From NCBI GenBank assembly GCA_965212115.1, contig CBDBUR010000001.1, positions 641,395-705,394 on the forward strand: a stretch of DNA of 64,000 bases, written 5' to 3'. The notes under the pieces were generated by a model. The model saw only the letters and a list, made by a program, of their open reading frames with translations, made no database searches and had not been told where the DNA came from. Positions within the stretch are counted from its first letter, which is position 1; each line of letters opens with the position of its first letter. Below, piece by piece: positions 4,094 through 33,100 of the stretch. This stretch comes from Alphaproteobacteria bacterium. GTDB lineage: Bacteria; Pseudomonadota; Alphaproteobacteria; JAPOUT01; G958296285. The translations under genes and the position numbers were made by a program.

Positions 4094-4118
4094 AGCTCAC
4101 TCGCCTCATTGTGAGTTC
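4093..4118. terminator. possible bidirectional terminator hairpin between convergent lepA and giant gene 1
   Basis: Imperfect inverted repeat GAGCTCAC (4093-4100), 10-nt loop, GTGAGTTC (4111-4118). This gives an 8-bp stem with one G-U wobble. There is no strong U-tract on the plus side. The minus-strand side is followed by CUAGUCCUCUUUC. The 50-bp gap between the convergent stop codons leaves little room for anything else. Confidence 0.25.
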
Positions 4119-4143
4119 ATCAGCACACAACAACCTAAGAACT

Positions 4144-7100: not shown

Positions 7101-10100
7101 AGCTGCCCACCACCACATTGCCCCGCGCGCGAACCCCTAGACCAGCGTCGCCCGAAGACGTCGCCAACGTCACCATCCAATCATGAACCGTCTGATCCGA
7201 AGTCGATGTCGTCACAAACTCTATCTGACCAACAGACGTCGTCGTCGTCGTCTTAAATGGATTCGTCGCCGAAGCCGCCGCCCAAACACTCGACGACACC
7301 AATCGCAATGTCTGACCGCTCGACGCCGCTGGCGATGATGTCGCCGTCAAGCTCAACGCCCCTCCAGTCAAAACCGTCAGACGCGATGAATTGAAATTGA
7401 TCGCACCCGCCGACGCCGTCAGACTTATATTGTTCGAACCCGCATTAATATCGCTGTTGACATTTACATCGCCCGTCAAAGCCGTGATCGAAACCACCCC
7501 GGCGCTCTGCTCAGGCGCTAAATCACCCGTCAATGTCACACTCGACCCGCTCAATGTCCGCGCCCCCGTCAACGTCAACGCGCCATCATTCGCTACACTG
7601 CGCGTCCGACCGCGAACACGAACACGACGCGTCCCAAAGCCCGCTTCCAAAGTCAGCGCTCCATCTCCTGTTAGATCAGCACCAACCGTTAGATCGCCTC
7701 GCGCTCTGATCCTCAACGCAAAACCGCTCGGCGATGACGCCCGCGTCGAAAGCAACGTCACTTCCGAACCCTCCAGCGCGCGAACCATATCTGCGTCCAC
7801 CGTCCCAAAAGTGATCGCACCCGTGCCCCCATTATAGCCCGCTTCCAAAATTAAACCCCGTCCATAGATCAAATCATTCGCTACAACAACATCGCCCGCG
7901 CCGCGAACCGCTAGCGCTGATCCCGAAGAATTCGCTCGCGATACCATCCACGCCTGAACCCCCTGCGCCGCTGTCGCCGTCGTGATGAACTCCAGCTGGC
8001 CAACATTCGTGGCAACATTAAATGGATCAGACGCCACTGCCTCTTCCCATACCGTCGCGCGACGCAGCCCAACTCCTCGACCCTCTACACTCGGCCGACG
8101 ATCAGCCGTCAGCTCCAGCGCCGAGCCCGTCAACGTCACCAGGCGATCAGGACTGAAACGAATCTGACCCGAACGCGCCGAACGCGTCGCCGTCCCTGCC
8201 GTCAAGCTCAAGGCCCCCGCGCCCGCATCAATATCGGCATGGACAAGCAAGTTGCCCCCTGCCGTGATCGTTAAATCTTGACCAAACGGGGCCGGTGCCT
8301 TCACGCCGCCATCAACAGCTAAACCAGCCGTCAAGGACACATCATTGCCGATCAATGTCAGCGCCGATGATCCCGTGAAATTAATCGCCCCTGACCCATC
8401 CCCCATGCCCGCCTCCAACGTCAGGTTGCGCGCAGACGCCAGCTCAATCGATACACCAACATTTACATCGCCCACGGCGCGAATAATTAAATGCTGCGCG
8501 CTCACCGCTGATACCATCCAAGGCTGAACAACTAATGCCGACGAGGACGTCGAAACCAATTCCAACGTCCCCCCAGAGGGCAACGTCACAACACCAAAGC
8601 GATTGCTCGTCACAAACACCGACGCCTGCGCTAAGCTGATACGACCCGCCGAAAGCGACGAACCCGGCGCCGAAGAACTCAAAACCTCGCCAATGCCCGC
8701 CGTCAAAACCAAATTGCCGCGCAAAACACTCCGCCGAGAAACACGCCGAACTAGATTAAGCGCCGCGCTCACCTGCAATGTCCCCAATGCCGTGATCGTC
8801 AAAGAACGACCACTGCCCGCTTCCGCCGATGCCTCCGCAATCGTCGTCACATTCGAAGTTAACGCGATATTCGTGCCTCTCAAACTCGTCGTCCGGCTCC
8901 TCCCAAAACTAATCGCGCCGCCGGTCGTGCTCACCATCAAATTCCCCGCGCCTACATCTATGCTCGTGGCAATCGAAACAGCCCCTGTCCCTGTCACAGT
9001 CAAATCTTGGCCGCTCGGCTGATCCAACAAATCACGCGACGAGGTCAGCGAAATCGCCGCCCCTGACAAGGACGACGCCTGATCTGACGACCACATAATC
9101 CGACCTGTTCTCCGCCGCGCCGAGGCCGAAAGCGTTAAATCGCCCGCACCCGCATTGACACGCGCCCCAATCGTCAGATCTCCCGACAAAGCCCTGATCG
9201 TAATGTCAAAATTGTTGATGCCTGCCGCTGGCGTCGCCGCTCCTTTATCTGACAGCAAATTCACATTGTTTCCCTCTAAACGGCGCGTCTCGCCAGTCGC
9301 CGCCATGAAGTTTAGCGCTCCCGTCGTGCTGCCATCACCGGCAACCAAAACCAAATCACGCCCTCCAAGCACAACGTCGCGATCCACCACCAGATCTCCG
9401 CCCGTGCGCACCGTCAAATGACGACGCCTGGAAGTCCGACGATCGCTCACCAAAGACACCATCCACTCGTGCAGCGTCTGCGACGCGCTCGACGCCGATA
9501 TAAACTCAACCCCGCCGGTGTTCAGCCTAATATTCATGAAAGGATTGCTCGCGCCAAAACCTGCCGCCTGCCTCAAACGCAACGTCCCAACCGAAAGAAC
9601 CGTGTTCGAACCTTCGATCGTATTGCTGCCGGCGCTTAAATCTAAAGTGCCGCGACCCAAATTTAAATTGGCTGACAAGGTCATCGTCCCCGACGCCACA
9701 ATCGTCAAATTACCATTGCTGCCGCGACCCGGCAAAGCGCCATCCGATGTCAGAATAATATCAGCTCCGCTCAAAACCGCGCCGCTGCCAAAACTGAGAA
9801 CGCCCGTCTCGCGCGTGCCTGTCCCCGCTCCAGCCTCAAGCATCAAATTGCCGCTGCCCGCATTCATATGCGTGTTCACTCGTAAACCGCGCAGCGCCAC
9901 AACTCTCAACAAAGCATCGCTCGCCGAAGGCATCTCAACTGCGCCCGCTTCATCACGAACCGTGTCACCGGTTAAAGTGATGACATCCCCGGTCAAGAGA
10001 CGCGCCCCTGCAAAATTGATCACACCAATATTCCCAACACGGCGACGACCAACACGCGTCGTCCCCGTGCCTGCTGTCAAAACCAAATCTCCTGTCCCCG

Positions 10101-12308
10101 TATCGAGGTCAACCCCCACTTCAATATCGCCGAGCGCGATTACGCGCAAACGCCGACCGCTCGCAGGCGACGCCGCTCCGCCTTGCAGCTGAACATCATC
10201 TCCGCGAACCTCTACATCTCGCGCCGTGCTCAGCAAGATCGTCCCGCCTGCCGTCAAAACTACATCCCCCGTACCCGCGTTTAAGTGCGCCGCTAACGTT
10301 AAATCTCCCGAAGCCTCAACTGTCAAATCCTGATTGCTCGCCGCAGGCAGCGCTCCGCGACGCGGATCCGCACTCAACTCTATCATCGCACCCGTCAAAC
10401 GCGTCGCCGCATCCCGGCGCAGCTGCAAAACACCCATGTCGCGGCTGCCCAAACCCGCGCCCGCTGACAAAACTAGATCCCCGCTCGTCAATATATCCGT
10501 GCTCACACTCAATCCGCGACGCGCCACAACACTCACCGACTCCGTGCTCGCGCGAGATGTGCCGCCCGCATCCCCGATCAACACGATGTTCAAACCATTG
10601 AGAACCGTCTCAACAGAATCCCCCGCGCTCGAAACACCCAAATACAGCGAACCCGCATTCACCTGCGTCGTGCGGCCCACGCGCGTGTTCAAACCTCCGA
10701 TCAAAGTCAAACTCCCCGTCCCCGCATTCAAATGACCCAGAACCGTCAGATCATTGCGCGCCCGAACCGTCAATGAGCGGTTCGACGCCGATGCCGGCGC
10801 ACCGCGACCCGTCAACATGATCTCCCCGCCATTCACAACCCGCGTCGCGCCGCCAAATACCAATGTCGCGCCGCTCAAAGCAACCTGACCTGTCCCTGCA
10901 TTGACGCTCGCATCAATCCGCAAATCGCCCGTCGCCGCAATCGTCAAATCACGACCGCCCGTCGTGATCGTCCCCGATGATACCAACGTAATGTCAGCGC
11001 CGACAAAACGATCCGCTGCCGTCTCTAGAATGATCAACCGACGCCGCGACGCCGCTCTCAACGTCAAAGACCCAGCTCCTAGGTCAATCGCCGCGTCCAA
11101 AATAATGTTGCCTCCTGTAGATTCCAGCCACAATGACCGATCCATAACTGACCCCATCCACGCATAATAACGCTGGTTGCCTGTCGCAATCACACGAAGC
11201 TCTCCAGACACAAAACTCGCCGGCTGTTGATCTGTAAACAGCGATCCATCCTGACGCACAATAATCTGATCTGCCGCCATCACTCGATCGCCGGCTACTT
11301 CTATTGTCCGCGCGCGCAGCGAAAGAACTGAACTCATCTCATCTCCAGACATCGAACCCAAACGCAGATCCGAACTGATCTCCAGATTGGTAAACGCCCG
11401 GATCGTCAAATTATGCGACCCCGCCATGCTCACCGACGCATCCCCGTCGCTTTCAAAAATGATGTTCCTGCCCGTCAGTTCAACCGGCGCGCTCGTCGCA
11501 AACGACAGCCCTCCAACACCCACGCTCGACGCCACACCCGCGCGCAACGTCAAAACGCCCGCGCGGCTGCGCGACGTGCTCGCGCCCGTGTGCAAAGACG
11601 CATTGACAACCAAATCCCTCTGCGCTGAAACCGTCAATGACTGACGACCCGCCCGAGGCAACGACGACGACGTCAGCATGATGTTATCGCCTGACAATTG
11701 CGTCGCCCTATTCGTCCTAAACTGCAGCGCACCCCCTGAGGCCAACGTCAGATCCCCAGCAGCGCCGGTATCTATGTTCGTGTTGATGGTCAAATTACCC
11801 GTGGCCGTGACCGTCAAAGCCTGATTGCTCGCCGTCGGGTTAGCCCCACCGGTCAAAGTGATCACAGAACCGCTCAACACCACCGCACCATTGCGAACTG
11901 TCGTGTCAGAGGCTGTGCCGCCGCCAAAATTTAAAGCACCCCCAGCGATTAAGCTCAGATTGCCTTCCCCAGTGCCAAAACTGCCGGTCAAGGTCAAGCC
12001 GCCGCGCGCACGGATCAACGCCGCGCCCATATTATCGCTCGCTAGATCCACCGCGCCCGCCGTCAGCCTGACGACACCTCCGTTCAACGTGATCGAACGC
12101 TGCGCATCAAAGTCTATCCCGCCGACCGCCGCCAATGTCAAATTGCCCGCCCGAGTGTCAAGACGCCCTCGGCTGTCAAGGCCAATGCTCGTGTTTAGGA
12201 GAATATTACCTGTCGCTGTCAACGTCACAGCGCGGCGGTTCGTCGAAATGCCGCCGCGTGAACCCGTCGTCAACGTGATGTCCGCTGCTAAAATCTCCGT
12301 CGCCGCAG
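4144..12308 (-). repeat. copy A of a ~8.2 kb near-identical direct repeat (3' end of gene 1), paired with 53949-62086
   Basis: Track ORFs on the mirror strand match copy B at a constant offset of 49,778 nt. ORFs 6464, 7391, 7982, 8603, 9155, 9418, 9518, 10334, 11387 and 11413 are letter-for-letter identical to 56242, 57169, 57760, 58381, 58933, 59196, 59296, 60112, 61165 and 61191. Scattered substitutions occur near both ends of the repeat. A 9-bp indel and different C-terminal tails shift the offset to 49,805 nt at the stop codons. Confidence 0.85.
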
Positions 12309-15300
12309 ACCCAAACACAATATTGTTCCCCTCTAAAACTAAAGACCGAGACCCAACAGCCACACTCTCAGCAGAAACCACAACACTGCGATTGACTGAA
12401 ACTACCCGAACAATAAACGAACTCGAGTCGCTTGACACAGGCGCAAGAAGTGTCGCATGCAAAGTCTGATTGCTCGTCCCTGTCGAAATGAACGAAACTC
12501 CAGCGCGCGCCGATAACACCGCCCCTAGTGCTCCACTGCCAAAAGACGCCTGCTGGCGCAACGTGATCATACCACCGCTCAGCGTCAGCGTAGCCCCAGG
12601 CGTCGAGGCTGTAAACATGATCGCGCCACGACGCGACGTTAGAGACAAAGAACCCGTCCCAACATCAATGTTGCCTGTAATCGTCAGGCTGTCTGCCGCA
12701 AACGTCAGATCATAATTGTTCGCGCTCGTATCAAGTGCACCCAAAGTCAGAGCCTCAAGACTCCCCGCCACTAAACCCGCGCTGCCCGTGTAAGTCGGAA
12801 CCACACCCCCCAACGTCAAAGCGCCGCGACCTACATCAATGAGCGCGCCAAGATTGAGCGTCGCAACCGAAAGCGTCAGATCCGCGTCGCTCGGCTCCGG
12901 CGCTGCGTTCGCTACAAGCGTCAACGCCGCCGCCGTCAAAGTCGTCGGGCGCGATGAATTGAAATTGATCGATCCTTCATTGTTTGTCCCTGATCCCGCC
13001 GTCAACGCCAAATCACCCGTCCCAACATTAATATCAGTGTTGATGTTCAAATCCCCCGAAGCCGTCACCGTTAAAGCGTTGTTGCTCACCGTCGGTGCCG
13101 CATCCCCCGTCAACGTGATCGCACCACCGATTAAACTCGAGGCCGTACTCACCGTCGCATCAAAATTGACCACACCTGTATCATTGCCATTACCCGCCTC
13201 CAACGTCACAGCCCCCGAACCAAAATCTCGCGCTCCGCTCAAGGTCACATCACCCGCCGCGCGCAATACAAAATCAGAGCCCGAACTCGTCGCCAAAGTC
13301 GGCATCCAGGCTTGTACCGCCTGCGATCCGCTCGCCGTCGTGATGAACTCAAGATCACTCGCCGACGTCGACGCATGACCAACAAAAGGACTGCTCGAGC
13401 CAAACAAAATGCCTGACATCAATGTCAGACTCTGCGCACGCGACGCTGGGGCTGTGTCCGATGTCAATGTCAGCGCACCGCCTGAAGTCAGCACCACCGC
13501 GCGCGACGCATCAAACTCGATCGCACCCGTCGTCGTCCCCATGCCTGCCGTGAGCGCAAGCGTCGCCGCGCTCAAGTTCGTGTTGAGGTTGATCGCGCCG
13601 CTCGCCGTCAGCGTGAGCCCCCGCGTCCCCAGATTAACCGTCGCAACCGCCGTGTTCGTCAACGTGATCGACGACGCTGTGATCGTCGTCGACGCGCCGG
13701 TCGCAAATGTGATGTTCCGATTGCGCGTACGACGATTGGTGTTTTGTCCTGCAACCAACTCAAGCGCTCCCGTGCCAAAATCAAGCGCGCTCGCAGCCAC
13801 ATTCAGCTGACCCCCAACCTCCAGCGACAAACCCCGACCCAAAACCACCATCCACGCAAGCAAATCTTGTCGGCTGCGACCACCATACAATAAACTCAAA
13901 GAGCCTACCGTTAAAGTCGACGCCGGAGACCGCACAAAAGGCTGATCCGACATGAACTCTAAACTCAGCGCTGTCAACGTGCGGCCGCTGCCAAAATTCG
14001 TGTTCCTATTACTTTCAAAATTCACCGTGCGCAATGACAACACTCCGCCCGCTCGACCAACATTAATGTCTGCGTCGATCAACAAAGCGCGGCGCGCACG
14101 GATCGCCACCATGATCGCTTCGCTCGGCGCTGTCGGCTGACCCACAGCAAGCAAAGAAACATTGTTCGCGTCTATGCTCGTCGCGCCCGTGAAGTTGATC
14201 GAACCGCCTGCAAAAACCACCGGCGTCGTCGTCGCGGCCGCTGGTGCGCTCAAAGTGAGATTATGGCGGCTTGGATTGCCAGCAACAAAATCCCCGCTAA
14301 GCGACAAAGCTCCGACCGTCGCTGTCAGACGCAGGTTGCGATTGAAACTCACACTCTGCGCGCTGATCGAAAGTACTCCCGCCGAAATAACTCCCAGCGC
14401 GCCGCCCAAAGTCAGCTCTCCATCTGCCATGATCGTCAGCGCGCGAGATCCAATAGACACGCTGCCCGCGATGATCGAAATCTCCGACGCTTCTATCACA
14501 ATCTCTCCGTCGCCCGCAAAAGACAAAACACCCGAACCCGCATTTAACTCAATCCTCTCACTCGCGCGAAGCTCCGAAGGCGCCACAAATGATCCCCCAG
14601 GAATCAGCGCAATCTCTTCTGCTATCAAATCAACCAGCTCAAACCAAGCGTGATCAGTCTGGTCAGCTTCGCCCCTATAAAAAACAAGCGGCAGAACATC
14701 GGTAGGAAGCGTGAAAGTCGCCGGCGCGCTCGGGCCAAAGAGAGCTTGCTGCTGTATCAAAAGAACCTGCGCCGCTTCGATCTCCACCCCGGAGCGGAAA
14801 GCAATGGCAGTGTCACCTCCCCCTTCAAGAGTGAGTTCGCCGTCACCGATGGCAATGTCATCCACAGTCAAATCGTTCGCCGCAGTAATCGTGAGGTTGG
14901 CACCATCGCTTCTCGTGATCGCACTGGTGATGGTAATGTCGGTGGCGCGCAACTGACGGACAGCGCCGATGATCTCAATGAAGGTGCCGCTTACCGCCGC
15001 CGATAAGGTGAGATCGCCGTCGCCGAGATCTATATCGCCATTGATCTTTATCGTGCTGTTATTTGCAGGCGTAGTCGCATCCACAGCGCCATCAACCACG
15101 ATGACCAGATTTGCCGCCGTCGTCGTCGTGATGTCACCGGTGAGATCAACCCGATCGGCAGATAATGTCACCGTCGCTGCCACCAGCGAGGAGGAAGTCC
15201 CTGTCATCGGCGCGGTGAGCACGACCCTCCTGCCGCCCAAAGTGATGACGCCTGCGCTTCTCGTGAGGTTGCCCCCAACCATAATCGGGCAACTCGCGCA

Positions 15301-18300
15301 GGTGATGCTCAAATCGCTCGTCAAAGGCGCATTGGCGATATCATTATTCGTTGACAGCCAAGCCTGAACCTCCTGCGCCGCAGTGACGCTCAAAACCAAA
15401 GCTATGTCTAAAGCTATGTCCAAATTGCCAAAATTGAACAGCCGCGCAGAACCAAACGCACCCGACGTTTGCGTGAAGGTTAAACTCGCGGCAGTTAAAG
15501 TCGGAACATTGCCGTCGGCATTATCAGAATCCAAATCCGTAGTGGTGATGGTGCCCGCCGTCGCCTCAATGACGATGCTCTGCCCCGCATAGGTGATCGC
15601 GTTGGCGGCCAGAGACACCGCCGCGCCCGAAAGTGTGATCGCGCTCGTGCCGCTCAACGCGATCGTCGGTGCCGACAAAGCAACGCCCTGCTCGCCCGCC
15701 ATGATATTATCGCTCAGCGTGATCGACGCCGCGCTCGTCAGACTCAAACCGAGACCATCAACTAACATCCACGCATAAACCATCTGTGCCGCTTGGGTAT
15801 CCAAGATCAGCGAGTTCGTCGCCGCGCCAAGTGTAAATACGTCGAAGGCAAAAACCGCATTCTGCTCAAGCGTGATCACACTGCCAGAAAGCTCGCGCGT
15901 CGTGCCCCCATTGCTAATGACGCCGCATGCTGAAGCGCTATCACTGCCGCAGGTCGAGACCGTGGCGCGTGCCCTCATCACCAGCGCGCCAGCGCCAACA
16001 TCCACATTGCCTGCCAAAGTCAAAAGGCCTTCCGTCGCTTCCAAAGTAAGATCACCGCCCTCAACGGTTGTGATTCTTGGAGCATTCAGCGTCAACGTTT
16101 TGGCCTTTATCGAAGGCGCTACACCAATGACCATCAAATTCGCAGCCGAGATCCGCAAAGCGCCGCCCGCGCTACCGGAAATGTCGAGAGCAGAGTCAAG
16201 CCTCATCGTGAGCCTAGCTCCTTGCGCGATGATCTCTAAGCCGGGGTTGTTGCCCAAATTAATCGCGCCCGCGTTAATCGTGATCGCCGCCGAGCTCAGA
16301 ATGATGTTCGTGTTGCCGTCGCCGTCGGCGAAAGTCAACGTGCGAGAACCAACATCAAGAATGATGCTGTCTTTTGTTTCAATCAGCACGTCCACATTAG
16401 GATTATCTTCAGGATGGGTATAGGTGGCGGATAGTATGGTGAGATCGTGAAACCATGCTCGCTCAGCGATGTCACCCAAAGCGCGACCAGTGACAACAGG
16501 CAATCTGCCCGCATTTAGGATAAACGTCGCCGGCCCCGGGTCTTCAACAAAAGCGCTGCGATCCTGCGCTAGATTCGCCGCAAACGCCGTCACCGTGATA
16601 TTGCTGCCCCATATGATGTCGCCGGTTGATACTCCTGTTGCGTCATCAAATCCGGCCTCAAGCACAAGCGCGGCGTTGCCAACATCATTGCTGTCATCAA
16701 TATCGCCATCATCAGCGACAAGAGATATATTGCCACCGATCGTCAGATCACCACGCGCGCGCGCAATCAGTTTTTTGCCCAGCGTGCTTTTGAGCGCAGA
16801 CATAAAATTGATGTTGTCGGCCTGCACAGTAAAAAGATTTACAGTGTTGGAAATATCATCCATCAAAGCGATGGGCGCTGTGCCGTTCACATCTAGAACG
16901 AGATCGCCGCTGCCGATGTCAAAGCTATTGGTGATCAAGATTCTCCGATTGCTCGTAATGCTCAAATCGCGGTTCACTGCGATCATCCAATTATAGATTC
17001 CTTGGAAGCCGCTGTTCGGGATAGTTGTGGCAGTGAAACTCACAAAATCAACAGCAGCCGCGAAGTTAAACAGGATGTCAGAGCCAAACGCATTATCTTG
17101 CGAAAGGCTTATTGTGCTGGCAAGCAGCGTCGGCGCGACAAAGTCGTCCGTCACAGGAAAAGGCGCGCCGTTTGAGATATTGTCATCATCGCAACTATCT
17201 GGACCAGTGCAGCCCGTCAGAATGCCCGCCGTGAGCGTGAGATCGCCCCGCTGCATCGTTGTGCCGCCGCCGCCGCCATCTTCCATCGAAAACTCCGCGA
17301 CCGTGACGCTGCCACTAACGGTCAAATCTCTCGAGGCGTTCACGACGAGACTGCCGCCATTGACAGTCGTTTCGCCGCTGATGGTGATGTTTTGCCCAGT
17401 GATCGTGAGCGTCCGGTCTGCGGCATCCACAGAAACATTGATGTTGATCGTGCTCGTCATCAGCGAAACATCTCCGGTGTTGGCGGCGTTGAGGTCGGTG
17501 TTAATTGTGGCGCTTAACCCAATTATGATGGAGTTCCTGTCCGAAACGACCATCCAAGCAGGATAAATCGTCTGGTCGACGCGCGCGTTCAATTGCAAAG
17601 TGCTCACATCCGTAAATGCCGTCGCCGGAGACGCGGCGGTAAACGCGCTATCTTGCGCGAGAGTTATTTTCCTTGCAGTGAGCACACCAATTTGACTGCC
17701 AATGCCGCCCACATTCAACATGATATTGCCGGTATTAACTATTGGATTGTTGCCATCGTCCATCGTATCAACGCCGGCTTCCAGCGTTAAATCTGTGTCG
17801 GGGGCCGTCATGCCATCATCCCTAAGAGTTATGAAAACGACGCTGCTCTCAAAGATCAAATTGCCTTTGGCGCGGATGGTTAAATTTCTATTTGCGGCAC
17901 CAGAAAAATCAATTGCGCCGCCCTTAAACCTAATTTCACCGCCTTCCAATATGATCGTGTCAGCAATGCCACTGCTTGCGCTTGAAATGAAGCCAGCACC
18001 AAAATCTACCATAGCATTTAGGGTGATATCGCCATTGCCATTATCCAACATCTCGCCACCCTCATGAGCAAGCTCAATAGAGCCGACCATATTGGTGAGG
18101 GTTAAATCTCTGCCTGTGCCACCATTTGCGTTTTTATCCAACATCCACAGCCAGACCCTCTGACTGAGGCTTTCTGTCACATTAATCTTCAAAGTCTTCA
18201 CATTGCTGGAAAAATTAGGCCCGCCGTCTTTCCCAAAGCCGCTGCTATTATTCGTCAAAGTGATGTTATCGGCAGAGAGCATGGCAGAATCAGCAAAAAT

Positions 18301-21300
18301 GAAATCGTTGGCCGACATAAGAAACATAAGACCATCACCGCTCGTCCCAACATTTATGCTGCCGTTCAAGGTAATCTCATCCTTCGTTTCAATGGCGAGG
18401 CTGCTGTCAGAGACCGCAGGCGCGTTGAGCATGAAATCGCCCGCCATGATCTTGATGAGCGCCACATCAGCACGCGTTTCATCTTTGCCTTTAAACACGA
18501 TCGAGCGCATCTCGCTCGCCGTGTTCGTGTTTGACAAGATTAAACCACCGCTGCCGAAATCAATGACGCCATCGGCGAACAAAGTGGCGTCAAGAGTGAT
18601 GACGCTGCTGGAGCTGTCCGCGGTGTTGATGATCAAACCCCTGCCTGCCGCGACCATCCAAGTCTGAAGCGTCTGTGCGGTGATACTCGCGGGGAGATCA
18701 ATTTGCAGACCGCTGGCTTCAAGAGTGAATGGGAAAAAAGAGGTGAACGCCATACTCTGCTCGATGATGATGTCTTCTGCGATCAAGGTGGGCGTTGCAT
18801 CGGAAGCGAAACTGCTCCCGGCCTTCAAAAGAAGAGCGGTGTCTGCAGCGCGAGCAAACGAGACATCGTCGTTGATTTTGATCGCATTGGCGCTTGAAAG
18901 CGAAATCATCGCAATGGCGGAAGTCGCAGAGATGTCGCCCGTGATCGTGATCGCCTTGCCTACAAACGAGACGCTAGAACCCGATAACGCATCAAGTCTA
19001 ATGCCCCCCGGCGCCGACAAGGTTAGGTCGGAAGAGGTGAATCCGATATCGCTCGCCGAAACCGCCATGATCCTGAGCGCGTGGCTGGCAATGGTGCTGT
19101 CAACTTCCAGCGTGAGGTTGCGGTTCGCAACCACCATCCAGTCTTGAAGGGTTTGCGCCGAGTCTGTCTTAAGGCTCAAATCGGAGGTCATCAACACAAA
19201 GAGCTGGTCGCTGCCAAAAACGAGATCCTGCGAAAGGGTGATCTCGCTTGCGGTCAAGGTTCGCTGTGTGCCGCTGTTTTTGATGCTGCATGACTCAGTG
19301 CCGCTGCCGCAGGTTCTGGCTTCCGCCATGATTACGAGCGCATTCGCACCGACATTGGCATTGCTCATCAAATTGACATCTCCGGCTTTGGCCTCCAAAG
19401 TGAGGTTGATGTCAGCGTCTGTGATTTCATCCGTCTCAGTATTCGTGTTGATGGTGGTGATCATGCCTGCGATCAAAGTAAGCTCCGCGCCCGACAAAGC
19501 GCGATTTCCACTGCCGGTAAAATTAATCGTGCCGCTCGCGCCAGTGTTAATGATGAGATCGCTACTAACATTGAGGTCAGCGTTAAGCGTGATCGTGCCC
19601 CCGCTCGCCTGTATCGTCAAGGAGCTGCCGCCCGTGCGCGCAAAGGCGACCATCCCTGCCATGATCGAGATGGTCGGCGCATCCAAAGTAATCGCAGCGA
19701 GGTCAGGGAAAGTGAGCGTCCCTGCGCCGACGTCCAACGTAATGCTATCTATGCGACTTAGCGCACCGTTGAGAAAAAGCCCGCTGGGCAGATCGTAATT
19801 TTGATCGACTCTGTTGAGGCTGCCAGAGATCGTCGGCTCGTTCGCGCCGATCGCGGGGATAACATAAAAGCCCGGTGGCGGCACGATAAGCCAAATTCGT
19901 GTCATGGCGTCGGTCGGACCCACATGGCTCACAGCTTGTGGCAGAGGGGCATCCGCTGACGCAATCACAAAAGTCGCCGGCCCCAAAGGCGCACTAGCTC
20001 TGTCGGGAGCAAAAGGCATATTCTGCGCCAGTTCCACCGAAAACGCTGTGACCGTGACACTCGGCGTTGTCGGGTTGATTTTTGGCATATCATCATCGCT
20101 ATCGGCCCATAAGATGTCGCCGCCTGCAATGTTGTCGGAGTCGGCCACAAGCCGGAGCTTGTTAGTCGCGCCGCTGCCGATGTTTATATTGCCATGAATC
20201 GTCAAATTGCCGCGTGCAGAGATCGTCACGGGAATGTTGAAAGGATTGTTGAAAGCGCCCTTCAAATCGATGTTTCCAGCACTCATGGTAAAGCTGGTTA
20301 GAGGGGTGTTGCCGGGAAACTGTAACAGCCCGATGACCCTATTGATGTTGCTCACCTCCAAAGTGAGGTTGCCACTGCCGATATCAATTTCCGAAAGTGT
20401 CATAACAATCGATGGTCCAATAAAGAAGGCGCCAGTTTCGCTCTTGATTGTCAAACTGCGATCCCTTTCAATCATCCACGGTCGGACGAATATCGCGGCG
20501 TTCGTGACAGTGAAGCTTACGAGATCAACTTCAGCACCGAAGTCAAACACACGGGACTCATTATAATTGTCAGCTTGCGAGAGAAAAATTGAAGCGGCGC
20601 TCAGCGTCGGCGTGACACTCACAATATCGACAAGCTTGCCATTGTTATCCCTGTCCTTGTCCGCCGTGAGCGTGAGATTACCCTTCTTCGTTATCATATT
20701 GTTGCTGTTATCGGGGTCAGACATGATGAAATCTTCAACCGTGATGTTGCCATAGACTGAGATGTCATTAGCGGCCTCCACGACAAAGCTACCGCCGTTC
20801 ACCGTGATCGTGCCATCACGCGACATGCCGCTACCCTCCAGCGAGTGGCCAAAAATGAGTTCTCCCATGCTGCTGATCGTGAGCGTGTTGTCAGCGGCGT
20901 CAGCAGGGACCATGACGTTGATTTCATCAATGTGCAGCTGCGTCAGAACGGGATTGACGAAGGCGAGGTCCGCATTGATGGTGGTGCTTGGCGCGGATAT
21001 GACCAAAGCTGAGATCGGAAAAGTCAGCCAATCAGTATGGATTATCTGGTCAGAACCTGCAAGCAAGCCAAGTGAATATGTGGACGTTCCGATCCTAGAG
21101 GTGATTGTGCTGGCAAACGCGCCGGGCTGAACGAGTAGCACAAATATCCCAGTGAGCGTCACACTGCCCAGCATGAAATTGCCTTCTCCGCTCCCCTCGC
21201 CCGCTTCCAGAATTAAAAAATTGGCCGCTTCAGTGTTGAGCGTTATATTACTGTTGATGGTCAAATTGCCTTTGGCCTTGATGGATAGACTTTTTCTGCC

Positions 21301-24300
21301 GCTATTTTTATCCGTGCTGCCGCTCTCATCAAGCACACCCGTGAGCGTGATCGCGCCGCCGGACATAACACTCATCTCGCCATCGCTGTTATTTCCATCT
21401 AAAGAGAGCGTGGCGGCGTTTAAGGTGATATCGCCCATGCCATTATCAAGAGGAGCGGTGTCAATATGAGAAATGGAAATGGAACCGCCCTCATTGTTGA
21501 GAACGATATCTCTATCGTTTGAACCGTCGCGCATCATCCAGCCATGAAGCCTCTGATTTTCATCGCTGCTCGTGATTGTCAGCGTCAGACTTGTCACCGA
21601 TGCGGCGAACATTACAGGCGCGGGGCTCTCAAATGTGGCACGCTGCGACAAAACGAGTTCACCGGCGGTGAGCAGGGCGCTACTGCCAAATCCAACTCTG
21701 CTGATCTCATCACCATGGCTGTCAGCGATCAGCGTGAGCCGATGCGCGCCGACATTGGCAGTGTTGATATCTATTTCTCCCGAAACCTGGATGGTGAGAT
21801 CTCCTGTGACGGCTGTTATTGATGCCCCGCTGCCGATTTGAAGTGATGCTTCCACGCTTGCCGAACCTAAAAAGATTTCACGAGCGCCGCCGGTGAATTC
21901 GAGCTGGCTGTTATTCCCTGAAGTGGGCAGCAAAACTAAAGAGCTTGCAGACATAATATCGCGCTCAATGACCAGTTTAGAATTATTACGCGCCATATTT
22001 AGAGCAAGGCCGCTAACATCACCATTTGTCATCCATGGATGGAGCGTTTGCGCGGCAACATCAGCGTTTAAGTTAATCGTTAAACTCGGCTTTGATCCTA
22101 CTCCTTCTCTTGCAAAGGCGAACGGGAAAGGATTTACCGCATCATCTTTGGCGGTGAACGCCTGCCCCTGCCGCAGAGTGATTTCATCTGCGGTCAAAGT
22201 GACGGAGCTCATGCTAGAGAGAATACGCCCGCCCCCACTCGTATGCGTTCGCAACACAATGGAAGACGCATCACTGCCATCAGCGCTGCCCATATTGATG
22301 TTGCCATTGATGACAATATCAAAGCCATTATTAAGCTCCGATCCGAGAGCGAGGTCGATTCCGCTTAAGCCTTCAGCCGCGGAGATGTTGCTATTGATTG
22401 TGAGTCCAGCGTTGGCAACTATGGCTTGATCTCCGTTGATAGAAACTCCTCCCATCCTGCCCTCCAAAATGAGCGCTTTTTGGATGTAGAAAGAAGCATG
22501 GAAATTCAATGCCCCTCCCTCGCTGATTAAAGAGAGATTGCTGCTCAAATCATTGACATCCACAACTACCGACGTATTAATCTCGATGGAAGCGTTAACG
22601 GCGGTAAGCGTCGTATTTGCCGCGCTGTCAACCATCATCCACCGATGAAGAGGCTGCCCGCCCGCCGCCTGCGATGTGAGCGTTCTCAGATTCAACTGAG
22701 TGACGGTGCTGTCGTTATCGGTGAAGTCGAAATGCTGTTCGGCAATAAACTGGCGTCGCTGCGAAAGTGTAACCATTCTAGCAATCAAAGTGTGAGACCC
22801 TGATGAGCCAGAAGAATTCTCATAATCTTGATTTCTGATGCGGCACAAGCCGGTGGAGCTGGATAGAGACGGACAATTCGTGCTGTTCTCTTTCTCCGCT
22901 ACAACCGCAAGCGCGTTCGTGCCGACATCGACATCGCTGTTCAAATTGATGTCGCCTGTGAGGGCAATCAAAAAGAGATCTTGGTCAGCGGTGGTCTGGC
23001 TCGCGTCCAGCGTAAGCTCGCCGCCCGCCTGCAAAGTGTAAGCGCCGCCGCCGCCTGTAAAAACGACCGTCCCCGCACCCGCATCGACAATGAGATCACC
23101 AGAAGCCTCAATGCTCGCATTGAGCGTCAGCGTCAGTACGCCGCCGCTCGAAGTGAGCGTCAGTGAATCGTTAGATGATGGAATCGTGATTGTCCCTGCC
23201 CTGATGGTGATGGTCGGTGCGTCCAGCGTTATCGACGTCAGATCAGGGAAGGTCAGTGTCCCTGTGCCGACATCTAACGTGATGCTCGATGAACGCTCCA
23301 GCAGACCATTTTCAAAACTGGCCGCCGGAATCGTGTAGTCTGCGTTTGTGCCGGGTCTTTCGGCTGTGTTATCAGCGGGCGTGCTATAGGTGAGCGGCGC
23401 GGGATCGTCAAACCATGTTTGCGTCGCGGGATCGAGACTCGTTGCGCCGCGACCGTGAGGCCTCGCACTCCCCGACAGGATGAACGTCGCCGGACCCGGA
23501 TCGCTTGCTAAGGCCGAGCCATCCTGCGACAGACTCACCGACAGCGCCTTCACCGTGACCGTCGGCATTGCTGGCATTGTGCTTGCGGTGGCGTCCGTAG
23601 CGCCATCGGCCCAGAGGATGTCGCCGGTGCTGTCATCGCCGTGCCCTGCACTGAGCCTCAGCGCTGCATTCCCGACATCTAATTCATCAACAAGCAATAT
23701 ATCGCCGCCGATCGTCAAATCGCCGCGGGCGACGATCTCAACAGGAATGTCGGCAGTGCTTTTGAAAGCGCCGAGCAAATTGATGTTGCCAGCACTCAAA
23801 GTGAGGCTGGCGGGCAGAGCGGTGTCAGCGTTAGGGGAAAGAATTTTGATGAAAAAATTTTTCACCTCCAAAGTGAAATCACGGCTGCCGAGATCAATGT
23901 CAAAGTAAATGCCAATGGCTGAGCTTGTAATTTTCAAGTTGAAATTTCCTTCAAGCATCCAAGAATTAATGAACATGCTGCTTTCGGTGGTTAAGTGCAA
24001 TAGATCAGCATTTTGAAAGTTAAACTCACGTTCATCAAAATCTCCATCTTGTGAGAGAAAAATTGAAGCGGCGCTTAGCGTCGGCATGGTGGCGGCGATT
24101 GCGCGAATATCATGGTTGGTGTCATCATCCGCACCCGCCGTGAGCGTCAGAGCACCGCCATCATTGACCGTGATGTCGCTAATGACTTCGATGGTTTCGT
24201 TGGCCTCTACGACGAGGCTGCCATTATTTACGATGATCGTGCCATCTCGATCGTTGAAGAATTGCGTGCCACCAGTAAAGAGCTCGCCGCCAAATCGGAT

Positions 24301-27300
24301 ACTGCCATTGCTTGTGATCCTGAGCGTGTGTTCAGAAACAGGCGTCGCGGCATCTTCATCATCAGGAACATTGATGATGATTTCGCCAAAGTGCAAGATA
24401 ACCCCCGCCCCAGTATTAGCAAAAGCGAGGGTCTCAGTAATGACGGCTTTTGGCGCACTGATGATAACGTTGATTGCGCCGCTAAATTCGGTCATCCAAG
24501 AGTGGATCGGCTGCGCTGCGCTGGAATCCGTGCGCAAGACTAAAGTTCCATTTGTTAAATCGTATGATTCCGCAGTGCCTGTGATGGTGATGGTCGCCAG
24601 AGCTGTGTCGCCAAACAGCCCATCTTGCGCAAGAAAGATACTCTCTCCGGAGAGCTGAACATCATTCGCCAGCATGAAACTGCCAGTATTAACTCTTACC
24701 AGAGAGCCGCTATCGCCATTTTCTTCCCCTCTTATATCAACCCCCGCTTCCAGACGAAGTTTTTTGTCCTCTTTGAGCCTGATATGACTGTTGATGATCA
24801 AATTGCCTTTAGCGCGGATGGACAAATGTTTATCACCGCTGGCACGATCAGCGGCTGCCCTTTCATCAAGCGCACCCGTGAGCGTGATCGCACCACCTAA
24901 CAATGCGGAAGTGCTGCTGTCGGCAGCATCTCCATCTAAAGAGAGCGTGGCGGCGTTTAAGGTGATGTCGCCAGTGCCATTATCGAAAGAATTATCGGAA
25001 ACAGCTCCCGAATGGGTAATGCGAATGGAGCCGTCCTCATTGTTGAGAACGAGCGCTCTTGTGCCTGAAATGCCGCCCATCATCCAGGGATGGATTCTCT
25101 GGTCGACGCCACTGCCAATGATCGTCAGTGCCAGCGTCGCCACCGAAGAGGCAAAACTATACCCGCTGCTTTCAAATGCGCTGCTTTGCGTCAAAACGAT
25201 CTCGTCGGCGGTGAGCATCGTCGCAGAAAGTGAAAGCCCACCGCTCCCATTGCCGTCATTGTCGGCGGTCAGCGTGAGCTTGTTGCTCCCAACATCTACC
25301 GAGCTATTTGCAAAAGTTATGCTGCCATCCACGATAATCGTGAGATCGCTGTCAGACGCGGAGTCGAGTGTCGCGGGCTTAAACAAGCTGAAAGAGCCAG
25401 CCTTGATCCGAACAGCCTTCCCCATGACCACGTTGCCGCTTTCATCAACGAACGGGTCTCCACGCCCATCAAAGAGCCGGACATCTTCTTTCCCCCGAAA
25501 CTCAATCTGGGCATTCGCCCCTCCTCCAGATGCAGAAGCGAGAAGCAGCTGCACCACACCGCGACCAAAATTAATTCCTAAATCCGGGAACAAGCTGGCG
25601 TCAACGATCAATTTGGCGTTCGTATGCGCCATGACAATGTCTAAATTCCTATTTTCCTCGACCATCCAAGTTTGAAGCGTCTGCACGGCAACAGCATTGT
25701 TTAATTCAATCAGTAAAACAGGTGATTTTGCCCCCTCCGATGCGAGAGTGAATGGGAAATCATCGGAGAATGCCTCCCCTTGCCGCAGGATGATCGCGTC
25801 CGCGGTCAAAGTGTAGTTCCCACTAGAATTGATTTTTCCGCTTCCACTTATATGCGTTTGCAAGACAAGGGAAGTTGCATCAATATCACTAGGATCTGTG
25901 GTGTCGGCGATGCCCAGATCGATGTCGCCATTGATGATGAGATCAGCGCCCCCGCTCGACGACGTGTTGATTTCGAGGTCGGCGCCGTTGACAGTCACAG
26001 AGACGGGGCTTATGAGCTTGACTGACCTGCCGCCTCGCAAGAATACGTCTTCTGATGTGGAAATAACAATCCCACCGACTTCGCCCTGCAAAACAAGCGA
26101 ACCTCTGATCTCGATAGAGCCGACTTCGAGGCCGCCCTCTGCATTGACTCTTTGGGTGAAATTCACCGATCCGCCTATGCTTCTTAAAAAAAGGCTGCCT
26201 CTTTTATCGCCAGAAGCTGTGCTGCCGATAAGGCCCCCGATCGTTATCTCGCCGCGCGCAGTGAGCAACGTGCTTGAACCGTTGTCATTGATCACCATCC
26301 AAGGCCAAACCGTCTGCGCCGACACCGTGAAAAGGTCCAATGTTCTGACGAATTTGATCCCATTGTCAAAAGCAAAAAGCTGGGTGCCATTAAACTGGCG
26401 ATTCTGCCTAAAAGAGACTATGTTTCCAAGCAAAGTATAGCCTCTTTCGCCTGCGCCGCTATTTCTGATGCGGCAGCTGTTGTCCTCACAGCCGGAGCTG
26501 CTGCTCTCTGCTATGAGCAGAAGCGCGTTCGCGCCAACATCGACATTGCTGGCCAGATTGATATCGTTGCTCGAGGCAGTCAAATTGAGGTTTTGGTCAG
26601 AAATGATCTCGCTTGCGATCAAAGTAAGCTCTCTACCGGCCAGCAACGTGTAAGCGCTGCCGCCGCCCACCAGATTGATTGTCCCCGCCACCCCCGCATT
26701 GATCGTGAGATCGCCAGCCACCTCAATGCTCGCGTTGAGCATGAAGTTCAACGTCCCGCTGCCCGACTGGATCGTCAGCGAGGTTGTGCTTCCCGCAAAT
26801 GCAATTGTCCCTGCTGTGATGTTGATCACCGGTGCGTCGAGCGTCAGTGTCGAGGCGCCGGAAATATCAGGAAAAGTCAGCATCCCCGTGCCGACAGCAA
26901 GTGTAATGCGCTCTTCGCGCACAAGCATGCCCTGTGGGAAAAGAGTCGCCGGAAGCACATAGCTTCCGTCAGCAGCTTTTTCATCGGCGGGGATGTCATA
27001 TTTCGGATCGGGCAGAAGCGTGAACCAAGTGCAGGCCGGGAGCGTGTCGGCTTCGCAAGGAGGCTGCGTCGTTTCATCCCCAGTATATAAAACATCGGCC
27101 ACAACGAGGCTGTCTTCTTGATCCTTGAAGGCCGCGATCCGATGATCATCATCAGGGTTAAAAATCCCGCCGCTCTGCTCTAACCTCACGGAACTCGCAG
27201 TGACAGGCGAGTTTGTAATTGTGATAACGCCCGTCGGATCCGTCGTGCCGGCCTCTATTGTGAGATTTCCGCTCGCAATATTTATTCCGCCCACACTCAT

Positions 27301-29967: not shown

Positions 29968-29987
29968 CTCTCTCGATCCCTATTTTG

Positions 29988-30016
29988 ACTATAGCCGTTA
30001 TTGATCGCCGAGTCAA
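29988..30016 (-). promoter_or_regulatory. candidate sigma70-type promoter for gene 1 in the 134-bp gap between genes 2 and 1
   Basis: On the minus strand, -35 TTGACT (plus 30011-30016), a 17-nt spacer, then -10 TATAGT (plus 29988-29993). The predicted transcription start is ~13-20 nt upstream of the GTG at 29967. The surrounding intergenic sequence is AT-rich. Confidence 0.35.
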
Positions 30017-30101: not shown

Positions 30102-33100
30102 TTAATCCGTCTGGGTGAGGCATTGCGTGTTCTGACACGGAAAATCAACATCAAAACGCGGCGCGCGCAGCGAATTCCTCTTCAAATTAAAGATCTTTAC
30201 AGTGCCAACTCCTCTTTTGCCGTTGTCGATCGCAAGCACACGGCTCGCCGCCAGCGAAGTGCCTGTCCCCAAAGTCAGAGAAGCGCGCGCTTCGATAAAC
30301 AAATTGTGTGCTCGTGTTGAACCCGCCGTGAGCGTCAGCGCTCTGCCCGACACTTTCACCGTTTCGGCGTCAAAATTCAACGCCTCGGTTGCCTCCACCG
30401 TCAGCGCGCTGGCCCCGGCGTCGATGTCGCTATTGACCGTTATGCGACCTGCTCTTAACGCTGCGGTGCCCTCAAACTTCGTTGCGCGCGCCGGTGAAAG
30501 CACAAGCTCACCTCTAGGTCCTAAATCATGCTCGCCTGTGCCAAAAGTGATATCCCCAGATCGCGTCGTCAAACTCAGTTTTTGCCCCTCTGTCACCATC
30601 CAGTCTTGAACCCGCTGTGATCTCCTTGTTGTGATCGACACATCTTTCGACAAATCGAATGGCCGCGTCGCGCTAAATTCATCTGCTTGCTCAAGAGACA
30701 CATGACTAGCTGTTAAACTCGGCGCGGTCTTGCCGTCATGCGCCGGCGTCTCCACTTTGCCCGACCCGTCCGCACCCGCTCTGATTTCAAGCACACGCCC
30801 TATCCCATCCAGCGCAATATCATTATTGATCCTCACATCACCACGCGCATCAATGGTCAGATCATGCGCCGATGATGAAATCATCGTCGTGCTCGAGCCG
30901 CTTGTCAAAGCAATCGACGCAGCTGCCAAACGCCGCTCATCACCTTCACCCGCAAAAGCCATCCCGCGCGCCGCCGATAAAGCCAGAGCGCCTGCGCCGA
31001 CTTCAATATCGCGCTCAACGTCCAATGATCCATCCGAAGTAATTTTCAGATCAATGCCTGAACGCAAAACCATCCAATCTTGAACAGCTTGGGCATCGTT
31101 GCCATCATAATTAACTGTCAAAGATTCCACTCTTCGCGCGAACCTCACTGGCGGTGCTGAATCAAAAACCTCCTCATCCTGCGACAAAGTCACCGAAGCC
31201 GCTGCCAGCGTCTGAGATGGCCGATCGCGGCGGTCACGGCGGAAATTGAGCACCCCGACATTATTCGCCTGTGTGTTTCGGCCTGCGGTCAGGACCAGCG
31301 CACCTGAACCTAGATTGATGTCTGTGTCAACATTCAAATCATCTGCAGCCTCAACTGTCAGGCTTCGGTCGCTGCCGCGCGAAGGCGCGCGATCAGACGC
31401 CAGTGTAACTTCTTTGCCGCTTAAAATAATCTCCCGTGATCTGCTAAATCTCAACTCACCATTTCTAGCCGCCGTGCCCGCCATCAAAGCGAGATCGTTC
31501 ACCGTCATAATATCCACATCCAGCGTCAAATGGCGCCTCGCCTCAATGGTTACGGCTTGACTGCCTGTCATCGGTCTCATTGCGCGGCCATTATTGTCAG
31601 TGGCATCCGCGCTCAGAGTGACATGATTGCCTTTCAATATCGTCGCAACAGATGCGCCCACATTGATTACGCCTATATTCTGCGCGCCAAATCCGGCGGC
31701 CAACACTAGATTCCCTCGACCTGCTGTTAACTGACCATTCAACGACAGATCTCCCGTTGCGCGAACGATCACATTGCCCGTCCGGCGATGCGCACTATTT
31801 GGTAGCGTGGCATCTGTTGTCAATTTGATATCATGACCACTCAAAGTGATTGCGCGGCCACTAGAAAAGCGCAAAGCGCCTGTCGTGGAATCACCCATCC
31901 CCGCCGTCAAGGATAACGCGCCCGTCACCAAAAGACTCATATTGACATGGATGTCGCGCATCGCAATAGCTTTCAAGCTCGATGCGCTCTGATTTTGCGA
32001 AGGCGTCCTATCAGCTGCAAGCATGATGTTCATGCCACTCAATATTCTCTCACCAGCCAAAATCAACACGCCTGTATTCGCGCGCATCCGCCTGCCCGAA
32101 CGCCTCCTGCCAAAACCCGCTTCCAATCTTAAATCTCCTGCTCCCGCATTCAGATCAGCCCCAACATCAACATTGAACGAAGACCTGATTACAACATCGC
32201 CGCTGCCGCGCGGCGCTGAACCATCTGCCCGCAGGGTGATCGTGTTTGCATCCAATGTTGCTGCTGTGTCAAAATTGATTGTTCCGGTATCCGCAGCCGA
32301 CAACCCTCGCCCTGCTTCAAGTGTCAAGTCTCGTCTGCTGCTTCGTGCGCCTCTTCGAGTCGTCACAAGAATAAGATCACCTCTGATATTTAAGTCGCGC
32401 GCCGCACGAATTACCAGATGAGCATTCGATCTCACCGCCAAAGCCGCCATCCAAGATTGAAGCGTTTGATCCATCTGTGACGTCGTGATCAATTCAATCT
32501 CCCTCACATTGGTTCTAAAGTCTCCAAAAGGATCGTCCTCCGCATACTGATCTGACGAAATCAACGTCAGAGCGCGCCCCCGCACATTCTGAGATGCCCG
32601 ATCAGCCGTCAGTGTGAACTGACGTGCCGTCAAAATAACGCGCCGCGACGGACTCAAACGCATCTCTCCTGTCTCAACAGCCATCCCTGCCCCCGCCATC
32701 AAAGACAGCGCGCCCGTCATCGAAAGATTCGCATTCAACATCAGATGACGCTGCGCTTCAATCTTTACATCTTGATTGAACAACGGCGGCGTTTTGATCG
32801 CGCTACCGCCATCATCGAAGCCGGGATCAGCGCTCAAAGTGATGTCATGGCCGCTCAATGTGATCGCCGCGCCCCCCATAAAACGAATTACGCCCACAGC
32901 ATCAGGCGCCTCGCCATAACCGGCCTCAAGCGTCAAATTCCTCTCTCCAAGATCAATCGCGCCGACCACCATCACATCGCCCGCCGCACGAACCGCTAGA
33001 TGAGCGCTTAAATGCGCGGCTAAGCCAACAATCCAATCGTAAACGGGCTGATCGACAGACGATGTCGCAATAAATTCAATTTCTCTGACATCTGGGTTTG

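Follow-up and report, generated by a model that had tools for sequence, protein, structure and literature searches.

In two-partner secretion (TPS) systems, a TpsA protein is exported by Sec, its TPS domain is recognized by an Omp85-type TpsB, and its passenger folds vectorially at the cell surface. Imperfect repeats with beta-helix folds occupy long stretches of TpsA proteins, which range in size from roughly 100 to 650 kDa (PMC5422565). In one of them, EtpA from enterotoxigenic Escherichia coli, four C-terminal repeat modules jointly bind blood-group A glycans (PMC11463764). Here we describe gene 1, a single uninterrupted open reading frame (ORF) of 8,607 amino acids (aa) in a 64,000-nucleotide (nt) stretch of an alphaproteobacterial assembly (GCA_965212115.1, contig CBDBUR010000001.1, positions 641,395 to 705,394; this whole stretch is "the window"). 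We think it likely that gene 1 encodes a giant TpsA whose passenger consists of beta-solenoid modules. A block of six modules, ABCDEF, was amplified in frame within it long ago and is now present in three full copies. Like the TpsA proteins FhaB/FHA, HMW1, HxuA, and CdiA, the gene 1 product has an N-terminal TPS domain, is very large, and contains long imperfect repeats, and it is likewise predicted to be all-beta and solenoid-like. Unlike them, it lies above the size range given for TpsA proteins (PMC5422565), at ~870 kDa as estimated from its length. The gene and its domain are as follows.

4144-29967, minus strand: gene 1, 8,607 aa (from the ORF list, the translation, and the TPS domain match)
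29128-29856, minus strand: TPS secretion domain, aa 38-280, with a hydrophobic, signal-peptide-like N-terminus ahead of it

The TPS domain is matched by Pfam PF05860 at aa 38-280 (65.8 bits; cut-off 33.5) and by NCBIfam TIGR01901 (44.1 bits; cut-off 29.1). Also, the N-terminus of gene 1 is 66-71% identical to the N-termini of the neighboring gene 2 and of two metagenomic relatives. By its TPS domain, gene 1 is a predicted member of the TpsA class (type Vb), and so the repeat that we describe below would belong to the passenger of a giant exoprotein of the two-partner-secretion type. Weak Pfam matches of gene 1 to G8 and FapA were below the cut-offs and were discarded.

Nearly all of the tryptophans in the gene 1 protein are in one motif, W-M, which closes each module with the consensus L-x-L-x-T-x(3-4)-Q-x-V-[HQY]-x-W-M-[VLI]-x3-R-x-L-x-L. 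Gene 1 and gene 2 each have 26 instances of WM, as compared to 0.8 expected in either, and 84% of these 52 motifs have Q at position -5. We cut the protein at the W of each W-M motif, which gave modules of ~137-264 aa in the repeat region, and we sorted these by all-against-all BLAST. There are six module types, and their order is constant across three units (U1, U2, and U3). The layout of the region is F0-[ABCDEF]x3-A'-x-F'-A'', followed by a C-terminal region with another module type. The modules of U1 and U2 are matched best by their cognates in the other units (33-180 bits, versus at most 39 bits for non-cognate modules). For U3, the cognate matches are weaker, and modules B and F partly tie with non-cognate modules. 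The parts of the protein are listed here, with the W at which each module starts; the bit scores are from a hidden Markov model (HMM) of the three units, which is discussed below.

27040-27519, minus strand: F0, a lone F-type module before the first unit, aa 817-976 (W817)
23428-27039, minus strand: U1, aa 977-2180 (1,204 aa; 3,612 nt); modules A-F start at W981, W1223, W1434, W1628, W1824, and W2003; HMM positions 2-1172, 1,919 bits
19906-23427, minus strand: U2, aa 2181-3354 (1,174 aa; 3,522 nt); modules A-F start at W2185, W2443, W2645, W2810, W2980, and W3164; HMM positions 1-1172, 1,875 bits
16468-19905, minus strand: U3, aa 3355-4500 (1,146 aa; 3,438 nt); modules A-F start at W3359, W3610, W3770, W3941, W4138, and W4327; HMM positions 1-1172, 1,606 bits
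14659-16467, minus strand: truncated fourth unit, aa 4501-5103 (603 aa; 1,809 nt), with A' (W4505), module x (W4733; 137 aa, assignable to no type), and F' (W4870)
13855-14658, minus strand: A'', a fifth, lone A-type module, aa 5104-5371 (W5108), with the lead-in DHAWFELV and IELNAGSGVLSFAGD, and without a Cys loop
4147-13854, minus strand: C-terminal region, aa 5372-8607, whose W-M modules differ in type from those above and are longer (171-716 aa)

The initial annotation described four tandem units with a strict period of 3.4-3.6 kb, the last copy being degenerate. Three full-length units do follow each other with this period. The fourth, which is indeed degenerate, has just 603 aa, so that the period then halves (A'-x-F'); a fifth, lone A module comes after it, and F0 already precedes the first unit. 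F0 was recognized from the alignment of aa 814-1200 with aa 3161-3592 and of aa 807-1192 with aa 4317-4706, and its links in the module BLAST are to m4327, m3164, and m4870. In the fourth unit, A' is 31-37% identical to the A modules and F' matches F0 and F3, while module x has no matches in the all-against-all module BLAST. Offsets of ~620 aa link aa 4340-4743 to aa 4970-5382. The C-terminal region is rich in R, G, and A, is poor in K, has C-x4-C at its end, and is 40-50% identical to the C-terminal half of gene 2. The earlier description of a single ~1,170-aa repeat that is closed by a WMV motif does not hold: in this higher-order repeat, each super-unit combines six distinct types of module, and W-M occurs once per module, or six times per unit. 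In the phase that was used for that description, the last W-M is ~180 aa before the unit's end.

The repeat is visible at both the protein and the DNA level, as was originally claimed. We compared the gene 1 protein to itself with BLASTP, using chunked queries (the whole-protein query returned the identity match only). This gave collinear off-diagonal matches with offsets of 1,155-1,220 aa (E = 2e-69 to 1e-20) and further offsets of 2,313-2,388 aa and ~3,510 aa. Self-blastn of nt 12000-27500 gave offsets of 3,402-3,633 nt and 6,939-7,185 nt, with local identity of 67-93%. A three-way alignment of U1, U2, and U3 is collinear from end to end. The profile made from the three units has three full-length matches in gene 1, with 1,606-1,919 bits, and its best multi-module match (at least 330 profile positions) in any other protein has 110 bits.

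Because the composition of the gene 1 protein is biased (S, A, L, G, and T are ~10% each) and a generic motif is common to all of its modules, one might suspect that the period reflects the compositional similarity of low-complexity beta-strand repeats instead of true duplication. However, the collinear alignment spans ~1,100 residues, and the global alignment of U1 with U2 scores 1,712, as compared to 50 ± 16 with shuffled U2, 210-281 with other equally long stretches of the gene 1 protein, and 912 with U2 after rotating its modules. The module matches are cognate-only as well. The same suspicion could be directed at the assembly, which is of the metagenome type and has near-identical 8-kb repeats, but the copies of the unit differ at 40-48% of their nucleotides, so they cannot have been made by an assembler's collapse or expansion. 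We therefore give an artefact of either kind practically no chance; it is already refuted by the module, shuffle/rotation, and profile controls. Overall, gene 1 contains an intragenic higher-order tandem repeat: a ~3.5 kb block of ordered sub-units, amplified head-to-tail and in frame within one giant gene, as the initial annotation had proposed.

The A module has the most recognizable features. It opens with a Pro-rich lead-in that contains W-F/L, and then come the strands SITLDVGxGTLTFPD...ITLDAPTIxIxAG. The four repeat positions that were reported previously (~26875, ~23255, ~19715, and ~16340) are four copies of the ITLDVGxGTLTFPD strand motif. A motif scan located all of the lead-in, ITLDVG, and Cys-loop motifs that had been described.

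26863-27033, minus strand: U1 lead-in, CTWFTLLPDPKYDIP (aa 979) to ITLAVGTGMLTFPDI
23239-23424, minus strand: U2 lead-in, TQTWFDDPAPLTYSTP (aa 2182)
19699-19902, minus strand: U3 lead-in, TRIWLIVPPPGFYVIP (aa 3356)
16321-16464, minus strand: A' lead-in, ERAWFHDL (aa 4502)
14509-14655, minus strand: A'' lead-in, DHAWFELV (aa 5104)
26863-26907, 23239-23283, and 19699-19743, minus strand: strand motif ITL[DA]VG[AT]G[TM]LTFPD[IL]
16321-16365, minus strand: degenerate strand motif, IILDVGSRTLTFADG
26461-26490, minus strand: Cys loop of U1, CEDNSCRIRN
22831-22875, minus strand: Cys loop of U2, CPSLSSSTGLCRIRN
19276-19311, minus strand: Cys loop of U3, CGSGTESCSIKN
15913-15951, minus strand: Cys loop of A', CGSDSASACGVIS

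A close pair of cysteines, in a short loop of the disulfide type, is present in four of the five A copies, and 20 of the 21 cysteines in the gene 1 protein are in close pairs. The tail of F and the A module that follows can together be aligned to two sites in gene 2, to one site in gene 3 (another giant ORF in the window), and to one in P0002, a metagenomic relative. When the nine F-A junctions from these four proteins are aligned, the invariant columns include the W of the lead-in, and the SITLDxGxGxLTF stretch is invariant at an I, a G, and an F. Since the F-A junction recurs in genes 2 and 3 and in P0002, it is an element of the family, and in gene 1 the modules B to E fill the stretches from one junction to the next. 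The differences in length between the copies cluster in the F-A junction.

The copies are old. U1 and U2 are 46% identical as protein and, across aligned codons, 60% identical as nucleotides; the corresponding values are 44% and 55% for U1 and U3, and 39% and 52% for U2 and U3. (A by-eye figure of 50-70% for the divergence of the copies had been given; it fits the DNA, at 52-60%, but not the protein, at 39-46%.) Identity between units is highest at the second codon position and lowest at the third. By the method of Nei and Gojobori, the rate of nonsynonymous changes (dN) between units is 0.50-0.64, the rate of synonymous changes (dS) is 0.94-1.39, and dN/dS is 0.45-0.53, with similar values in all six modules. 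Synonymous sites are thus near saturation, which implies that the amplification is old, in agreement with the initial annotation. The ratio of ~0.5 suggests that the copies stayed coding under relaxed purifying selection. Conservation between units is highest in modules A (46-49%) and D (41-52%). The divergence of the units (39-46% identity) is similar to that between the C-terminal halves of genes 1 and 2 (40-50%).

The ABCDEF block (~1,170 aa or ~3.5 kb) would have been duplicated in frame twice to give the three full tandem copies, perhaps by two in-frame unequal exchanges, or by slippage, between neighboring modules that were already similar. The initial annotation went further and proposed that unequal crossover makes the length of the protein evolvable. 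As an origin for the repeat, this is plausible, and it fits a habit of the family. For example, P0003 (a 7,703-aa relative that is probably a fourth giant paralogue from the source genome) has an 860-aa block of five modules in which aa 2251-3000 and 3111-3860 are 100% identical, along with a third, older copy at 59-84% identity. This block appears to be a young counterpart of the old amplification in gene 1 and a live substrate for changes in copy number. There are also block repeats in P0007 (offset of 795 aa; up to 83% identity), P0008 (offset of ~1,110 aa), and P0009 (~570 aa), so block amplification is a recurrent mode of growth in this family, and the relatives show it at every age, from 100% to ~40% identity. 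But the unit copies in gene 1 are now too diverged: the longest exact nucleotide match is 36 bp between U1 and U2 and at most 18 bp for the other pairs of units, which is near the background of 14-19 bp. The units are therefore poor substrates for recombination today, and unequal crossover between them is now unlikely.

Recombination may be more recent elsewhere in these genes. Genes 1 and 3 share an 8,115-bp tract in their 3' parts (nt 4193-12307 and nt 53980-62085); its two copies have 63 mismatches and one gap, or 99.1% identity. This tract covers ~2,700 C-terminal residues; just upstream of it, protein identity drops to ~58% and then lower. As the two copies are 50 kb apart, the tract suggests a recent gene conversion or segmental duplication, or else a problem with the assembly. 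Recombination across it would delete or duplicate gene 2, and a tract like this, of 8 kb and 99% identity in two giant genes, is a structure that misleads assemblers and gene callers. If the tract is taken as a recent gene conversion, given how sharply identity falls upstream of it, and if the 100%-identical internal blocks of the probable paralogue P0003 are considered as well, then the units and the paralogous giant genes might together form a reservoir for recombination, in which gene conversion swaps segments and changes the exposed fiber. We consider this very unlikely as an account of the units: there are no conversion tracts among the three of them, identity is evenly low, and the exact matches (18-36 bp) hardly exceed the background. 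The lack of conversion tracts instead indicates that the units have evolved independently for a long time.

What would this passenger look like? An AlphaFold model of U2, from an alignment of three sequences, is all-beta, with ~90 short strands and a predicted local distance difference test score (pLDDT) of 61. In this model, each W-M is in a one-turn helix between runs of strands. A model of the F2+A3 junction, from nine sequences, has a pLDDT of 73.7; both module cores are at 80-93, and ~90 residues across the F-A junction are below 50. We infer that the F-A junction may be a less regular segment, possibly flexible or extra-helical. Searching the Protein Data Bank (PDB) with Foldseek gave no significant match for either model (all E at least 0.07). 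The non-significant matches in these lists are mostly beta-helices or solenoids (HxuA, EtpA, HMW1, HpmA, TPS domains of TpsA proteins, autotransporter passengers, and ice-binding proteins), and the list for U2 also includes leucine-rich-repeat ectodomains. Hydrophobic autocorrelation in gene 1 shows no clear coil period, and none near 19-20 residues. From the models and the Foldseek lists, together with the review of TPS systems (PMC5422565), our best reading, which is well motivated, is that we can infer a beta-solenoid shaft for the gene 1 passenger.

If so, then the gene 1 product would be exported by Sec, its TPS domain would be recognized by an Omp85-type TpsB, and its passenger, a chain of ~33 beta-solenoid modules (roughly 160-260 aa each, but reaching 716 aa in the C-terminal region), would fold vectorially at the cell surface into a long solenoid. 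The three units would add ~3,500 aa, or ~40% of the protein, with each unit forming a rod of ~25-30 nm, and the loop and the lead-in of the A module would be displayed at regular intervals along the fiber.

By analogy with EtpA (PMC11463764), the super-unit might instead be a ligand-binding cassette that was amplified for multivalency (avidity), with the Cys loop and the Pro-rich lead-in as exposed binding elements. A and D are the best-conserved modules between units, the Cys loop is kept in four copies and the lead-in in five, and the junction region is modeled outside of the confident solenoid core, all of which would fit with binding. But no known binding domain was detected with Pfam or NCBIfam, the loop varies in both sequence and length (from C-x4-C to C-x9-C), and dN/dS is ~0.5 in all modules alike, with no focus on any one of them. 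We view a binding cassette as possible but on the unlikely side. It is compatible with a structural role for the units as spacers, and the two are not separable here.

Several points weigh against a giant TpsA with a beta-solenoid passenger, which we nevertheless prefer. Beyond the TPS domain, the passenger has no Pfam or NCBIfam match in the whole 8,607 aa, including to FHA-type repeats, and PDB sequences have no meaningful match to a profile of either the repeat unit or the F-A junction. The structural models are of low to moderate confidence and give weak support, being from shallow alignments (3 and 9 sequences), with pLDDT of 61 and 74 and with Foldseek E values of at least 0.07, and the length of the rod is from generic beta-helix geometry (~20 residues and 0.48 nm per coil). 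We found no orthologue of gene 1 that could reveal a change in copy number, whether by word-indexed search, by profile search, or by scanning GTDB genomes and JGI metagenomes with patterns from the unit alignment (zero found). Finally, gene 1 differs from the TpsA proteins named above in that it has no adjacent tpsB. There is no TpsB gene in the 64-kb window, where the downstream neighbors of gene 1 are lepA and pheT, and TpsB (Omp85/POTRA) does not adjoin the related genes in loci L001 or L003 either. Given that no TpsB is beside the TpsA-like genes that we examined, the transporter would have to be encoded elsewhere. A TpsB gene usually shares an operon with its TpsA. Other arrangements of TpsB genes do occur, and a single TpsB may serve several TpsAs (PMC5422565).

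The relatives of gene 1 show how widely its modules are found. A word-indexed search with U2 gave just two weak matches, P0001 and P0002, both from one low-coverage assembly in the European Nucleotide Archive (ENA) that has several fragmented TPS genes in tandem. An exhaustive profile search of 1.84 billion proteins gave 105 cluster representatives at E ≤ 1e-3, of which 51 were at E ≤ 1e-30. The best-scoring representatives of the module family are mostly 2,000-7,800 aa. Among all of the relatives that were scored with the unit profile, the ABCDEF block is present only in gene 1. Gene 1 itself is absent from both protein collections, as judged by the profile search and by exact look-ups with six alternative starts. 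P0004 corresponds to gene 2, and P0016 to the source genome's call of gene 3. With P0003, the source genome probably has at least four giant TpsA-like genes. P0016 has 4,937 aa and no TPS domain, while P0108, a near-identical gene 3 from another sample, has 6,333 aa, so the P0016 call of gene 3 looks to be truncated at its N-terminus.

The proteins from genes 1 and 2 and P0003 (three of the four giants) end with C-x4-C a few residues before the stop, with gene 1 ending in FHCVIPRCRIATPLVPSN; the gene 3 protein ends with C-x3-C (Cys 3340/3344). This pair of cysteines at the C-terminus appears to be a conserved terminal motif of the giant proteins. Three of these C-termini are in the window.

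4147-4200, minus strand: C-terminus of the gene 1 protein
30105-30160, minus strand: C-terminus of the gene 2 protein
53952-54000, minus strand: C-terminus of the gene 3 protein

For taxonomic placement, we relied on relatives of the TPS domain only. In GTDB genomes, these are, at 65% identity, a metagenome-assembled genome (MAG) from the Alphaproteobacteria whose chromosome has 1.6 Mb and, at 35% identity, a MAG of Micavibrio. P0005, P0008, P0009, P0010, P0012, and P0014 are on contigs of 1.04-1.90 Mb, and the L003 chromosome is 1.61 Mb. Some of the giant members share a contig (P0009 with P0012 and P0008 with P0014). These contigs of 1.0-1.9 Mb look like small complete genomes, and the family seems to be tied to small-genome uncultured alphaproteobacteria.

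A bolder proposal is that the Q-x-V-H-x-W-M modules are an undescribed class of segmented fiber, with F-A junctions (the Pro-rich lead-in and the disulfide loop) as hinges or landmarks, B to E as rigid beta-solenoid spacers of set length, and the conserved length of the unit as a molecular ruler. Uncultured, small-genome alphaproteobacteria, possibly relatives of the predatory genus Micavibrio, would spend several per cent of their genome on at least four proteins of this kind, with which they would reach or grip other cells. The lengths of the units (1,204, 1,174, and 1,146 aa) are similar despite module-level indels of up to ~50 aa. We regard this proposal as a long shot and prefer the narrower claim of a giant TpsA with an old block amplification.

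In the window, gene 1 is one of three giant co-directional ORFs that are in tandem on the minus strand.

113-2293, plus strand: pheT, a 726-aa ORF
2294-4093, plus strand: lepA, the next gene downstream of gene 1, on the opposite strand
29988-30016, minus strand: sigma-70-like promoter match, TTGACT-17-TATAGT (10/12; a match to the consensus only)
30102-53567, minus strand: gene 2, 7,821 aa, which begins with a TPS secretion domain
53949 to past the end of the window (53949-63998 within it), minus strand: gene 3, more than 3,349 aa

Housekeeping genes flank the TpsA-like genes in all three places (pheT and lepA here, ilv and leuA in L001, and DsbD and a type I restriction-modification gene in L003). 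The match of the pheT ORF covers only the last third of the profile for the N-terminal tRNA-binding domain (positions 56-92 of 96), so either its start is mis-set or PheT is shortened. Genes 2 and 1 are separated by a 134-bp gap, and the sigma-70-like match falls within it, a short way upstream of gene 1, which hints that gene 1 might be transcribed from a promoter of its own. The 5' part of gene 1 (nt 16000-30000) has a GC content of 51-54%, and its GC skew on the plus strand is mostly slight (0 to -0.15); in the 3' third (nt 4000-14000), GC content is 54-59% and GC skew is -0.2 to -0.3. This compositional break within the ORF is sharp, and in parallel K goes down from 1.7% to 0.1% and R up from 3.2% to 6.6%. 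The part of gene 3 within the window has the same pattern of GC, skew, and K and R. Ten ORFs of 163-294 aa on the antisense strand have no Pfam matches, and Rfam gave no match across the window.

Among described TpsA proteins, gene 1 is neither of the FhaB type nor of the CdiA type, since it lacks FHA repeats and a toxin end. The ~19-20-residue repeats of FhaB/FHA (Fil_haemagg_2) have no Pfam match in the 8,607 aa at E ≤ 0.1. CdiA has a pretoxin motif and a toxin domain at its C-terminus, and an immunity gene follows. In contrast, the C-terminal 940 aa of gene 1 have no Pfam match and end with ...FHCVIPRCRIATPLVPSN, we detected no toxin or pretoxin region at the C-terminus, and the gene that follows is lepA, on the opposite strand.

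Outside of the TPS systems, the closest analogy in logic is the super-repeat of titin and nebulin, in which domains in a fixed order are grouped into a larger tandem unit; these two proteins are intracellular. In SiiE, LapA, and the ice-binding adhesin MpIBP, giant bacterial adhesins that are built from repeats and are type I secreted, the number of repeats sets the length of a surface fiber. All of these are strings of globular Ig-like or helical domains. Gene 1 differs from them in that we predict its units to be segments of a solenoid, within the passenger of a type Vb system. Giant proteins have also been described from uncultured, possibly predatory or symbiotic bacteria, with the ~40,000-aa titin as the benchmark (bioRxiv 10.1101/2023.11.21.568195). 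As that source describes them, they resemble gene 1 in being encoded by very long genes, mainly in metagenome-derived genomes (here, with several giants per genome), and, by description only, they are set apart by being far larger and by their other domain content.

The closest system in architecture is EtpA, in which tandem copies of a large module extend the beta-helix of a TpsA. We detected no sequence relationship between EtpA and gene 1, and EtpA has one type of module four times, whereas gene 1 repeats a ~1,170-aa block of six modules. In the literature, we found no description of the module, of the locus, or of the hierarchy from module to six-module super-unit. What is new here is the unannotated module family, the six-module higher-order repeat, and the ~870 kDa size. 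The module family is rare, and a domain model built from it could be used by annotators. A long, repeat-rich, secreted TpsA is otherwise expected biology, but gene 1 illustrates how the duplication of ordered blocks of modules, and not of single repeats, can bring a type Vb passenger to nearly 9,000 residues.

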